64,000 nucleotides of DNA from Verrucomicrobiota bacterium (GCA_039796295.1 JBDKJY010000011.1:93157-157156), one strand, 5' to 3'; positions 1,558 to 41,963 are shown, counted from the first letter of the stretch. Program-made: numbers and translations. Notes: generated by a model not told the origin, from the sequence alone.

Positions 1558-4500
1558 ATGAAAATACACATTGTCTGCTACGAAGATGTCCACGGCTGGA
1601 TCCTCGGCAAGTTCGCCTTGAAGCTCCAGGAGCACCTCCGCCCGCTCGGCATCGCCGCCACCATTTCCAAGCAGCCCGACCCGCAAGCGGACATCAACCA
1701 CCACATCATTTACTACGACTACGATGGCCGGAAGACCACCACCGAGACCGTCATGGTCACGCACATTGACACCGACTGGAAACGCGAGCGTCTCCGCCAG
1801 CAGCTCGTCAACGCCGCGATGGGCATCTGCTGCTCGGCCGAAAGCGTGGACGCCCTCGCCGCCGCCGGTCTGCCGCGCGAAAAGCTCTGCTTCGTCAACC
1901 CCGGCCACGACGGCGAGATGCGCGCCCGCCGCACCGTCATCGGCATCACGAGCAAAGTTCAGCCCAGTGGCTGCAAACGCGAAGGCATCCTCCTCGACCT
2001 CGCTCAACGCCTCTCCCCCGATGAATTCCAGTTCCGCATCATGGGCACGGGCTGGGACGAGCACGTGAAGAACTTGCGCCTCGCCGGCTTCACCGTGGAC
2101 CACTGGAAAGCCTTCGACCGCCCGGAGTATCTCAAGCTGATGCCGAGCCTTGACTACTACCTCTACCTCGGCCTCGACGAAGGCTCGATGGGCTACATGG
2201 ACGCGCTCGCCGCTGGCGTGCAAACCATCGTCACCACGCAAGGTTTTCACCTCGACGCGCCCGGCGGCATCACGCACGGCTGGAGCGAACCCGCCGAGCT
2301 GTTCCGCATCTTCGAGAGCATCGCCCGCGAGAAACGCCTGCGTCAGCAAGCCGTCGCCAACTGGACTTGGCCCGAATACGCCAAGCGCCACTTGGCCCTC
2401 TGGCACTACCTGCTCGCCCGGCAGTCCGGCCAGTTGTTGAGCGCGTCCCTCCGCGCGCCGCTGGCCAAGATGGCCGTGCTCGTGGACAAAGGTGCCTTCG
2501 CCGAAGTGAAGTTGACCGAGGAAAGCAAGCCGGCGAAGCCATCCGATGACTCGCCGCAACGGCGTGAACTTCCCCCTGAAGTCATCCGCTCACTTCGCGC
2601 CCAGCACTCGCACTTGATGGCCGCCAATCCGGCCGCCGCTGCGACTTTCCGCAAGCAGTTCGCCAAGCAACCGCTCGACGCGGTCGTCGCGGACTTCGAC
2701 GGCGACCTAAAGTTCCGTTGCAGCCTGCACCACCACATCGGCAGCCAGATTTTCTGGCATGGCGGCTACTCGCAGGCACAGCTTCGCCTCCTGAGCCGGC
2801 TGCTCACGAGGCCGGACATGGTTTATCTCGACGCCGGCGCGAATGTTGGCGAGCAGACGGTCTTCGCCGCCAAGCGTCTTCCGCGCGGCCAGGTTTTTGC
2901 CTTCGAGCCGACCACGGAAGTTTTCCAGGTCCTCTCCGAAAACGTCCGGGCGAACGGCTTCACGCACGTCCGCGCCGAGAAGCTCGGTCTCGGCGAGCAG
3001 TCCGGCGAGCTGCCCATTTATTCGTCGCATGCCGAGGTTGCCAGCGATGGGACGGTGAACGAGGGCGTTCCGACGCTGTTCAGCTCCACCGACCGCGGCA
3101 CGGTCATCGAGCGGGTGAGGATTGTGCGCCTGGATGACTTCCTTGCGCCGCTCAACCTTCCGCGTCTGGACGTGATGAAGGTGGATGTCGAGGGCGCCGA
3201 GATGATTGTGCTCAAGGGCGCGGTGGAGACCATCAAGCGCCATCGGCCCGTGTTCATCGTCGAAGTCCACGAGGGCACCAGCCAGAGCGCCGGCCACTCC
3301 GTGCGCGAGCTGCTCCAGTTCATTCAGCGCCTGGGCTATCGCATCGAGGGCCTGCAACCTGACGGCGGAACGCGCCCCTTCACGGACAATCAACTGGCTG
3401 AGATTCGGGATGTGGTGTGCTTTCCGCTGCCGGTCGCGGCTGCGGCACTGGAGACGGATCAAACTCCCGCCATCGAAGCCGAAATCACCGCCGCGCTCGC
3501 CGTCGACCCGAACGACCGCGAAGCGCTCACCGCGCTGCTCTCCCTGCGGCTCGACCAATCACGCTGGGCCGAAGCCGCGAAGGCCGCGTTCCAACTGCTC
3601 CAGCAAACGCCGAACGAAGCGCCCATTCTCCAAGCTCTCGCCCACTGCCTTGACCAAACCGGCGAGCACGAAACCGCCGCCGCCGTGCGCGGGCGCATTG
3701 GAGCGCGGACGCCCACGTCCGCAGCACCTCCGAGTGATGAGTCGGCCAGCCACAACCCAACGCGGCCTGCGTCCCTCCCTCTCCCAGCGGGAGAGGGCCG
3801 GGGTGAGGGAGAACGCGTCCCTTCTTGCACCGTCGCCGCTCCGTCCACCGCAACGACTGCGGACGTAGGCGTCCGCGCTCCACGAGTCCTCCTCCTCGCC
3901 GATGTGCCCAACTGGATTTTCCACCGCCACTGCCAAGAGCTCACCGCCCGTCTCGGCGACGAGTTCACCTTCACCACGAAGTTCGCTGGCGAGCCGTTTA
4001 ACGAAGCCGACTACGACCTCATCTACCCGCTTGAGTTCAACCTCGTGAACCCCGCGTGCATCACCGACCCGCGCAAATACCTCACCGGCATCCGCTCCCA
4101 CTGCACCTGGCAGCGCCTCGGCTTTGAGCAAAGCATCGCCACGCTCAAGACCAACTTCGCCCACGTCCACGCCGTCTCCACGCGGTTGCAACGCATCTTC
4201 GCCCCGCACGTCCCGAGCCTCACGCTCCTCAGCCACGGCGTGGACACGAACTTCTTCACGCCCCGCGCCACGGCCACTTCACCCGCTGGCAAACTTCGCC
4301 TCGGCTGGGCCGGCAACCGCCTCTCGCCGAACAAAGGTTTCGCCGAACTCATCGCGCCGCTCGGCCAGCTTCCCGGCGTCGAACTCGTCTTCTGCGGCTA
4401 CGCCGACCGCAACCTAAACCGCGAACAGATGCGCGAGTTCTACGCCTCCGTGGACGCCGTGGTCTGCGCCTCCGACTTCGAGGGCAACAATAACTCGCTC

Positions 4501-40028: not shown

Positions 40029-40889
40029 TTAAAACTTCACCTGCCCCAAAAACTTCAGCGTCTGCGGCACCTGCTCCACCACGGTCGGGGACTCGTCCTC
40101 GATGAAGTAGTATTTCACGCCGCTTTCCTTCGCGGCCTTGAGGATGGCGGGCCAGTTCATCTGGCCGGTGCCCAGCGGCACGTCGTTGGCCACGTCGGTC
40201 TTGCCGGTGAGTTCGCCGGTGGCCACGCCTTTCTTGAGGTCTTTGAGGTGCATCAACTCCCAGCGGCCCGGATATTTCTTAAGCCACTGCACCGGGTCCT
40301 GGCCGGGGAAAACCACCCAAAGCACGTCCATCTCGAAGCTCACGTGCTTCGGGTTGGTCTCCTTCATCAGCAAGTCCATGAGCGTGCCGTCGCCATGCGG
40401 GTGAAACTCGAAGCCGTGCGCGTGGTAGAAGACCTTGATGCCCAGCTTCGCGCCCAGTTCGCCCGCCTTGTTGAAGACGGCGATGGCGTCGCGCGCGGCG
40501 ACTTCGCTGAATGGGGCCTTGTGCGTAATCCACGCGCAACCCGCGTATTGCAGGCCGATGGCTTGGGCCTCAGCGAGGACTTTCTCCGGTTCGCTCTTCC
40601 AGCGGTCGTAGGGGAAATGGCCGCTGATCGGCTTCAAGCCGTGCTCGGCCAGGAGCGCCTTGAACTTCTCCGGCGGCAAATTGTAAGTGCCGGCGGTCTC
40701 GACCAGCGTGAGCCCGAAGTCCTTGGTCTGGGCGAGGGCCTTGGGCGGGTTCTGCGTGGCGATGCCGCGCAAGCTGTAGAGCTGGAGACCCACGGGGCCT
40801 TTGAAGCTCGCGCCCGTGCCGGTGTCCGCGGCGGTGGCGGTGAGGCTGAGGAGCGCGACGAGGGCGAGGGCACGAAGGACGTATTGCAT
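40029..40889 (-). CDS. Secreted sugar-phosphate isomerase/epimerase (xylose-isomerase-like TIM barrel)
   Basis: ATG 40889 with signal peptide MQYVLRALALVALLSLTATA. FYHAHGFEFHP, LKDLKKG, VKYYFIEDE. Confidence 0.7.
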   Translation of the reverse strand: MQYVLRALALVALLSLTATAADTGTGASFKGPVGLQLYSLRGIATQNPPKALAQTKDFGLTLVETAGTYNLPPEKFKALLAEHGLKPISGHFPYDRWKSEPEKVLAEAQAIGLQYAGCAWITHKAPFSEVAARDAIAVFNKAGELGAKLGIKVFYHAHGFEFHPHGDGTLMDLLMKETNPKHVSFEMDVLWVVFPGQDPVQWLKKYPGRWELMHLKDLKKGVATGELTGKTDVANDVPLGTGQMNWPAILKAAKESGVKYYFIEDESPTVVEQVPQTLKFLGQVKF

Positions 40890-41010
40890 GCGCCTCGTAT
40901 AGCGGGCGGCGCGGCGGAGGGGAAGGCGGTTTCTATCCGCAACCTCCCGAGGTCTCACGCGAAGGGCGCGAAGGGCGCAACGCCGAATTGATTTCCGGGC
41001 GGGCTAAGGA

Positions 41011-41106
<96 letters not shown>

Positions 41107-41191
41107 CCCTTAACTGCGGTTTCCAAGTTCACACCGAACGCCGCCGACAGCATCGGTATCACCCAGGGCGCTGACCTCCGGAACGACCGAA

Positions 41192-41401
41192 CCGTGCTCG
41201 GGACCGGCGCGACCGCTCCCGGGTCTGGTGCCGCCGGACCTTTGCCTGACGCCGCCGGACCTGTGTCTGGCCCGGCTAGACCCGGGTCTGACGCCGTCAG
41301 ACCTGAGTCTGACGCGGCCAGACAAGAGTCTGGCGCGGCCAGACCCGGGTCCAGCCCGGCCAGACAAGAGTCTGGCGGCTCCAAACCTGGGGTCGCCACC
41401 G
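41192..41401. repeat. Tandem array of about 9-10 units of 21 bp, each a short palindrome (CCAGAC-N4-GTCTGG-like)
   Basis: Units start at 41234, 41255, 41276, 41297, 41318, 41339, 41360 and 41381, with degenerate units from 41192. Examples: CCAGACAAGAGTCTGGCGCGG and TCAGACCTGAGTCTGACGCGG. Long ORFs run through the array in several frames on both strands. Confidence 0.85.
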
Positions 41402-41477
41402 GAAAAACCCTTGCCCTACCATTAGCAGTGTGTTACCCACCCTCCTGCATCTATTTGCAGTGTAGTGGTTCCGTTTT

Positions 41478-41963
41478 ATGCGTTGCACCAAGTGCGGTTG
41501 TCTCGACGATAAAGTCATTGATTCCCGGGGTTCACGGGAAGGCTCCACCATCCGCCGCCGCCGCGAGTGCCTCAAGTGCGCCCACCGCTTCACCACCTAC
41601 GAGGAGATCGAGCACGCTGGCCTCATGGTCGTGAAGCGCGATGACCGCCGCGAGGAGTTCAACAAGGAGAAATTGCTCGCCAGCCTCAAAGCCGCCTGTG
41701 CCAAACGTCCCGTCCCCGCCGCCGAGATGGAGGCGTTGGCCGAACACATTACCGACCGCGTCACCGACGAGTTCGACGCCGAAGTGCCCAGCAAGGTGCT
41801 CGGCGAGCTGGTCATGGCCCGCCTGCGCGAGCTCGACAAGGTCGCCTACGTTCGTTACGCGAGCATCTACCGGCGCTTCGAGGAGGCGGAGGACTTCCTC
41901 GATGCGCTCAAACGACTGGAGGCCAAAAGTGATACAGCTACATTCCCACTGCCTGGTATTTGA
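41478..41963 (+). CDS. nrdR: Transcriptional repressor NrdR
   Basis: MRCTKCGCLDDKVIDSR...RRRECLKCAHRFTTYE zinc ribbon plus ATP-cone. Confidence 0.9.
   Translation: MRCTKCGCLDDKVIDSRGSREGSTIRRRRECLKCAHRFTTYEEIEHAGLMVVKRDDRREEFNKEKLLASLKAACAKRPVPAAEMEALAEHITDRVTDEFDAEVPSKVLGELVMARLRELDKVAYVRYASIYRRFEEAEDFLDALKRLEAKSDTATFPLPGI

Follow-up and report, generated by a model that had tools for sequence, protein, structure and literature searches.

A phased 21-bp tandem array upstream of nrdR in a Verrucomicrobiota bacterium: one of many intergenic repeats with a period of two helical turns

In the genome of this Verrucomicrobiota bacterium, a tandem array of 21-bp units lies upstream of the conserved promoter block of nrdR. 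We found that this array fits the class of intergenic repeats with a 21-bp period in the same genome: it is non-genic, phased, has a higher order of 42/63 bp, and its unit is unrelated to the others. Because the period is shared genome-wide, the phasing of the nrdR-upstream array is a property of the genome and not of the site. The array is probably a young, lineage-specific, near-neutral minisatellite, one of many with a two-helical-turn period here; we infer its near-neutrality and the mechanism of its expansion. The whole-genome period spectrum, the chance level of dyads, the bias toward convergent gene gaps, and the absence from the sampled congeners are new here. The consequence for the biology of nrdR is small: its regulatory core is the conserved 80 bp by the gene, and the array is an addition confined to the species. 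Annotators should be wary of taking each of these arrays for a purpose-built operator, iteron or centromere.

Structure of the array and its surroundings

The window, that is, the whole stretch of 64,000 nucleotides that was analysed, contains the following features at the nrdR locus.

40029..40889, minus strand: divergent neighbour gene for a secreted protein with a xylose-isomerase-like TIM barrel (Pfam AP_endonuc_2, 8.4e-14)
41005..41112, no strand: separate multi-copy hairpin element of ~95-108 bp with arms of CACAGAGN octamers (45-nt arms, 91%)
41197..41395, no strand: whole 21-bp tandem array, eight clear units and one or two decayed end units, with a 63-bp higher-order repeat (TRF, repeat search)
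41218..41391, no strand: long quasi-palindrome whose 85-nt arms flank a 4-nt centre, 41303-41306 (inverted-repeat search, RNA folding)
41223..41390, no strand: eight in-register units GTCTGG-N5-CCAGAC-N4, starting at 41223 + 21k (register parse)
41400..41477, plus strand: conserved nrdR promoter/leader block, not part of the array (kept in L002-L018)
41421-41431 and 41453-41463: NrdR-box-like direct repeats ATTAGCAGTGT and ATTTGCAGTGT in the promoter block, 32 bp apart
41478..41963, plus strand: nrdR (Pfam Zn_ribbon_NrdR, 2.7e-18; ATP-cone, 2.4e-21)

The first-pass annotation described about nine units of exactly 21 bp repeated head to tail, and we found eight well-formed units in register from 41223, with one or two decayed ones at either end, so that the estimate of nine is reasonable. 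TRF, which had been proposed as a check, reported period 21 (41230-41323 and 41246-41374, 72-75% matches), period 42 (41246-41389, 77% matches) and period 63 (41218-41351, 80% matches), the last with the best score of 170. The repeat search showed seven overlapping 63-nt copies whose start-to-start spacing is exactly 21, six times. Strict phasing at two helical turns is thus confirmed, as is the dyad symmetry of the units with their GTCTGG and CCAGAC half-sites. Since these half-sites are reverse complements of each other, their orientation alternates, flipping every 10 or 11 bp. As a result, the array has two equally good hairpin registers, and the whole stretch of ~170 bp is quasi-palindromic. 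Watson-Crick pairs were counted at 34/42 in register A and at 39/48 in register B, and all mismatches are transitions. The two arms of the quasi-palindrome (41218-41302 and 41307-41391) are 73% complementary in the inverted-repeat search, and this stretch could form a cruciform or a long hairpin.

Two details of the first-pass annotation held only in part. An example unit was said to occur twice; its 16-nt dyad CCAGACAAGAGTCTGG does occur twice, at 41318 and 41360, whereas the full 21-mer CCAGACAAGAGTCTGGCGCGG is present once only, at 41318. Another unit, TCAGACCTGAGTCTGACGCGG, lies at 41297. The array was also said to end about 77 nt before nrdR. It does end near the gene, but the last unit that can still be recognised runs to ~41390-41395, leaving 83-88 nt to the ATG; the 77 nt is the distance counted from 41401. 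In a contig from another sequencing run (Logan contig L068, SRR35626833) the whole array and its flanks are base-for-base identical, and a contig from a further run (L069, SRR35626827) is identical over the part of the array that it covers. Both contigs encode the identical NrdR. Because the array matches in both, it is no assembly artefact.

The two domains of the gene product confirm that the gene is nrdR, as had been proposed. The array lies within the 590-bp divergent gap between the TIM-barrel gene and nrdR. Its neighbourhood comprises the TIM-barrel enzyme, hicAB, nrdR and DUF1275, and the flanks are chromosomal housekeeping genes. The promoter block of nrdR has a TTGC-type -35 region, and the pair of ATTAGCAGTGT/ATTTGCAGTGT type is the only such pair in the genome. 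The NrdR box is a 16-bp palindrome with a spacing of 31-32 bp. In related families, CACAATATTTGGTG-like palindromes occur at the corresponding positions upstream of nrdR, and, going by the published consensus, we take both these palindromes and the ATTAGCAGTGT and ATTTGCAGTGT repeats to be NrdR boxes. The paired repeats suggest that nrdR may be autoregulated. At G000:C3:203080-203140, the single class I/II ribonucleotide reductase large-subunit gene of the genome carries a TTGTCA -35 region followed by a CACTATCCCTAGTG palindrome, with a further dyad ~31 bp on.

The hairpin element lies 85 nt left of the array and has ~15 related loci in the genome. Its copy at C46:14144-14237 is 78 nt from another 21-bp array, whose unit is unrelated. 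We considered a composite of a hairpin head and an array and rejected it: only 2 of the 15 hairpin loci adjoin a 21-bp array, which gives no firm link.

Period of tandem repeats in the genome

To determine the period spectrum, TRF was run over the whole 6.2-Mb genome (G000). The numbers of loci per period are as follows.

All 921 TRF loci: period 21, 154 loci; period 42, 19; compared with period 19, 3; period 20, 9; period 22, 12; period 23, 6
Loci classed as fully intergenic (a crude classification): period 21, 72; period 42, 17; compared with period 15, 10; period 18, 5; period 24, 5
Non-genic loci with at least 4 copies and a period of at least 9 bp: period 21, 41; period 22, 5; period 42, 10; compared with 26 for all other periods together

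Thus, the unit is 21, 22 or 42 bp long in 56 of the 82 non-genic tandem repeats (at least 4 copies, period at least 9 bp), where the context classes rest on crude gene calls from GC at the third codon position. The 21-bp arrays keep strict phase for as many as 16 units; examples are found at C1:238614-238952, C23:42767-43082, C5:23475-23669 and C38:265-533. Their sequences have little in common. In 58 of 72 arrays the units are unrelated to any other, the nrdR-upstream array being one of these singletons, and the flanks are mostly unrelated as well.

Dyad symmetry is not a feature of this class. A stem of at least 5 bp is present in 5 of 49 consensus units, compared with 5.5 expected from shuffled units, and the distribution of stem length is equal. 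The nrdR-upstream array is one of the approximately five arrays with a dyad of at least 5 bp. One palindromic array among about 49 is therefore what chance predicts, and the palindrome of the nrdR-upstream unit is probably incidental.

The position of the arrays relative to genes was also determined. Convergent gene gaps are favoured (19/56, compared with a background of 17.6%; p=0.0025), and divergent gaps are avoided (7/56; p=0.05). The convergent bias together with the divergent depletion is the pattern of tolerated repeats and not of promoter elements. Among 34 arrays analysed for a period-3 coding signature, only 2 showed it at p<0.05. The only recurrent neighbours of the arrays are large paralogous proteins, and no DNA-binding family recurs among the neighbour genes.

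Heptamer tandem arrays are very common in this genome, with 268 loci at 7 bp and 92 at period 14. About 40% of the 7-bp arrays are inside genes, and the window itself holds (AACTCAA)4, (GCAATCG)5 and (TCGGCAA)4. This richness prompted us to consider the 21-mers as three decayed heptamers. The idea was rejected, as the identity of the units with themselves at lag 7 matches that of shuffled units.

Absence from congeners and same-core arrays in other organisms

NrdR was found in 17 of 19 congeners with an identity of 87-94%. All 17 share a conserved stretch of ~80 nt directly before the nrdR ATG, and the DNA farther upstream differs between species. The 600 nt upstream of nrdR contain no AGAC-N4-GTCT dyad in any of the 17. 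When the 19 congener genomes were searched with the array by BLAST, only chance matches of 16-41 nt inside genes came up, and a search of 400 other genomes of the order with the two-unit pattern, allowing at most one mismatch, gave no array. Elsewhere in the source genome there is no array of this unit either. The first-pass annotation had proposed such a search of the genome and its relatives, and had itself named an absent or variable array with no effect on neighbouring expression as speaking against its reading; of this, the absence from relatives is borne out. Judging from this comparison, the array adjoins the regulatory core of nrdR without belonging to it and sits at a synteny break. 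It is no conserved cis-regulatory part of nrdR, whose regulation would lie in the conserved ~80 bp downstream.

A second array, C5:23475-23669, is likewise in DNA common to no congener, and both of its flanking genes have orthologues there (76-96% identity). In 793 kb sampled from three congeners we found no 21-bp array with at least 4 copies, compared with 5.6 expected at the array density of the source genome (P=0.004).

We searched the GTDB genome collection and metagenome contigs for the exact two-unit pattern CCAGAC-N4-GTCTGG-N5-CCAGAC-N4-GTC. It matched at four GTDB loci and on eight metagenome contigs. In 11 of these 12 the match is part of a longer array with a period of ~21 bp, and L041 has two units only. 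Since the pattern fixed both core and spacing, the matches show spread and varied context, not a favoured core or period. They occur in the following settings.

L036, Spirochaetaceae: array between convergent recR and an outer-membrane-like gene
L044, metagenome contig: array with a convergent OYE-type reductase gene on one side and a gene taken as DUF2277-like on the other
L037 and L064-L066, Thermoanaerobaculia: four loci in one genome, by tRNA genes or gene ends, with only the units shared
L045, metagenome contig: array where skp meets lpxD, apparently translated as an N-terminal extension of LpxD
L040, metagenome contig: array and IS110-family transposase gene ~360 bp apart
L038, L039 and others, Thermoplasmata archaea: array inside a sharply bounded non-coding element of ~650 bp

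On these sequence matches, same-core arrays are widespread and context-free.

Origin of the array and alternative explanations

In the minisatellite reading, a segment of ~21 bp (two helix turns), dyad-symmetric by chance, would have been duplicated in place. Slippage or unequal exchange would then have lengthened the array, 21 and 63 bp at a time. The array belongs to an intergenic population that shares the period of 21 (or 42, 63, 84) bp and mostly not the sequence. An effect on nrdR, if any, would be incidental: the array may act as a spacer that is stiff, phased and prone to form cruciforms, immediately beside the conserved promoter block. A purely neutral process leaves the 21-bp unit length unexplained, and this counts against the minisatellite reading. 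The same-core, same-period arrays in unrelated bacteria and archaea count against it as well. We also consider, more tentatively, that a sequence-independent process in this organism creates or preserves tandem repeats of exactly two helical turns (21, 42, 63, 84 bp). The nrdR-upstream array would be one product of this process, and dyad arrays built on the CCAGAC-N4-GTCTGG core would keep arising, from Verrucomicrobiota to Thermoplasmata, in which a dispersed 650-bp element carries them. The period might be fixed by a length-measuring step of replication or repair, or by selection through a protein surface that reads the helical phase. No described mechanism that gauges a length of two helical turns during bacterial DNA duplication is known to us. 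Accounting for the period lock would shed light on how intergenic DNA is shaped by replication slippage, nucleoid proteins or DNA structure.

The array was compared with known systems of tandem or clustered repeats. Plasmid iterons (R6K, pPS10) and the centromeres of type II partition systems (R1 parC, pSK41 parC) consist of helically phased repeats of 11-22 bp, which bind dimers cooperatively on one face and adjoin their rep or par genes on plasmids. The array has such tandem, helically phased repeats, with eight units at an exact spacing of 21 bp. However, it lies in a chromosomal context with no plasmid or phage match, has no partner rep or par gene, and shares its period but not its sequence with dozens of arrays of the same genome. 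Bacterial VNTRs, such as the mycobacterial MIRU and MLVA loci, are non-coding, arise and change length in place, have higher-order structure, and show no preferred unit length. The array is similar to them as a non-coding tandem repeat with higher-order structure, and differs in that the non-genic arrays of this genome are locked to 21, 42 or 63 bp.

Searching the literature by sequence words, we found nothing relevant beyond the paper on SMAG repeats of Stenotrophomonas maltophilia, which are 23-nt palindromes that occur singly, paired or clustered (PMC2613905). Both the REP/BIME sequences of Enterobacteria and pseudomonads and the SMAG repeats are, like the array, short extragenic hairpin-prone palindromes that form clusters with alternating orientation. 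Their clusters vary in length between strains and are mostly outside promoters. The array unit has the kind of extragenic imperfect palindrome of ~20-40 nt that marks REP/BIME, a 16-nt CCAGAC-N4-GTCTGG dyad in 21 nt. REP and SMAG sequences, however, form one dispersed family of tens to thousands of copies with a GTAG-type tag and RAYT transposases, whereas the array unit is present at one locus, neither genome-wide dispersal nor a GTAG tag with a RAYT gene was found, the units abut at exactly 21 bp, and the other arrays of the same period in the genome have unrelated units. The BrickBuilt minisatellite MITE of Porphyromonas gingivalis is an intergenic spacerless tandem array of 23-nt units close to promoters (PMC4596501), and in its spacerless intergenic units of about two helical turns and its closeness to promoters it resembles our array. 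BrickBuilt, however, forms one family, present 19 times in each genome, whose leader and tail subunits are conserved and whose ends are small inverted repeats (PMC4596501), whereas the array has unique flanks and a unique unit. The array thus lacks a defining feature of each of the REP/BIME-SMAG, BrickBuilt and iteron/parC groups, and it differs from VNTRs by the period lock.

Comparison of the units with each other gives a hint of constraint. The arms show 11/96 differences and the loops and linkers 21/72 (Fisher p=0.005; position permutation p=0.016). All changes in the half-sites are transitions (11:0, compared with 6:15 elsewhere in the units; p=1e-4), and one double compensatory change, TCAGAC...GTCTGA, is present in the arms. 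These tests overstate the significance, because the units are related via the 63-bp higher-order repeat and are not independent. Arm conservation, transition bias and the compensatory change hint that the arms may be constrained, which counts against the minisatellite reading and keeps a role in protein docking or as a DNA hairpin in play, with a rather low probability.

The first-pass annotation noted that same-face phasing of dyads is expected for cooperative binding of a dimeric protein, as at iteron-like sites. A small dimeric DNA-binding protein (for example, ribbon-helix-helix or HU-like) might sit on each half-site or dyad along one helix face and form a cooperative filament that insulates or tunes the divergent promoters. 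We regard this as unlikely, but as the least unlikely of the rivals discussed here. In its favour are the half-site spacing of exactly 10 or 11 bp over ~170 bp, the conserved arms with transitions only, the position directly against the nrdR promoter block, and the same-core arrays in Spirochaetota, Thermoanaerobaculia, Thermoplasmata and other metagenome contigs. However, these same-core arrays stand in every context, including convergent gaps and the inside of an operon, and the array has no DNA-binding partner gene among its neighbours (the TIM-barrel enzyme, hicAB and nrdR). A binding array tied to nrdR is not supported, given its absence upstream of nrdR in 17/17 congeners, and neither plasmids nor phages gave a match. 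The dozens of arrays that share the period in this genome have unrelated, mostly non-palindromic units, which speaks against a phasing brought about by recognition of a specific sequence. A single further CCAGAC-N4-GTCTGG occurs in the genome, compared with ~0.7 expected (an estimate from base composition); a regulon of single dyads was rejected, because the genome counts of the dyad are at chance level. The archaeal SegB centromere motif was discarded too, as TCTAGA-S-TCTAGA differs from the array unit. The candidates MetJ met-boxes, Tn3 inverted repeat and EcoP1I site were set aside as well, since the half-site arrangement does not fit. Less probable still is an orphan REP/BIME-like or MITE-borne cluster, amplified by RAYT or an IS110/IS1111-type recombinase, or a remnant of an inserted cassette. 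IS1111-type elements target REP-like palindromes. This origin would agree with the four intergenic loci of the Thermoanaerobaculia genome, which have only the units in common, with the bounded ~650-bp element present in 5 and 8 copies in two Thermoplasmata genomes, and with the metagenome array near the IS110-family transposase gene. The source genome encodes two proteins with a Y1-transposase domain, and the multi-copy hairpin element is close to the array. However, the Y1-transposase (PF01797) genes are on contigs C47 and C37, and the array is at C11:134 kb; the rarity of hairpin copies next to 21-bp arrays also speaks against this origin. In addition, neither the unit nor either of the immediate flanks has a second copy in the genome (BLAST of the array finds only itself), and the array has no GTAG-type tag, terminal inverted repeats or target duplication.

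The other proposal of the first-pass annotation, a series of small RNA hairpins, is weak, and a structured RNA in a wider sense (a transcribed row of hairpins or one long hairpin serving as a protein sponge, processing substrate or antisense regulator) is very improbable. Both strands do fold far better than shuffled sequence, with an MFE of -136 kcal/mol (z -8.2) on the plus strand and -149 kcal/mol (z -10.5) on the minus strand, and the same-core array of L045 lies inside a bamA-skp-lpxD operon and must be transcribed there. However, the MFE fold of each strand is one long hairpin, and the conserved promoter block of nrdR is downstream of the array, with no sigma-70-type promoter or terminator consensus found in 40800-41600. 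Wobble pairs number 3 on the plus and 5-6 on the minus strand, and this lack of strand preference does not indicate selection at the RNA level. The loops are not conserved, and the array is absent in all relatives. Rfam in E-value mode matched the array only with sub-threshold microRNA-like hairpins, with no CRISPR or other family at threshold; on 11 loci with same-core arrays it matched only a tRNA. BLAST against 72,556 plasmids and 50,697 phages and a dyad pattern search in viral contigs gave no match, and a known RNA, plasmid or phage origin was rejected accordingly. A CRISPR array was also dismissed, as in the first-pass annotation: the units abut without unique spacers. The least probable reading of all is a coding heptad repeat, either as a small repetitive protein or as an extension of a neighbouring gene. 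In its favour, four of the six frames are open, the frame CCA-GAC reads xPDxxLx per unit, and the same-core array of L045 seems to be translated, with no other in-frame start available. However, Pfam gave no family for the four ORFs that cross the array, the longest minus-strand ORF had no homologue in a collection of 5.8 billion proteins, and the unit differences by codon position (12/17/16) show no period-3 pattern. The ORFs also enter the hairpin element or overlap nrdR out of frame, and the unit lengths of 20-22 nt in the archaeal arrays would disrupt any frame. We therefore rejected a coding repeat, in agreement with the first-pass annotation, which had noted the frames open on both strands and took them to argue against selection for coding.

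Several same-core loci have features of their own. The Thermoplasmata element (L038:1340-2030, L039, L042:2070-2700, L046, L047, L054-L063) is 70-86% identical between copies, with unrelated flanks and 21-nt indels between copies. At its core, dyads of the form TTCCAGAC-N4-GTCTGG make up a 20-22-bp array, after which come repeats of seemingly ~63 nt, and the element has no Rfam match. In the Thermoanaerobaculia genome G411 (L064-L067; contigs C212, C255, C173 and C49), 21-bp YCAGACC-NN-GGTCTGR arrays stand at four intergenic sites with 3 to >15 units per site, and two of the sites adjoin tRNA genes. The 1970-bp metagenome contig L040 (453-1331 and 1691-1898) carries an 11-unit GAGCCAGAC-N4-GTCTGGAA array and, ~360 bp downstream of it, the IS110-family transposase gene. 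In the bamA-skp-lpxD-fabZ operon of L045, the junction of skp and lpxD holds four 21-bp units, TATCACCAGACCTGCGTCTGG, that are nearly identical (3435-3555). As the only in-frame start is upstream of the units, they are apparently translated as an (SGDTRRR)x4 N-terminal extension of LpxD.
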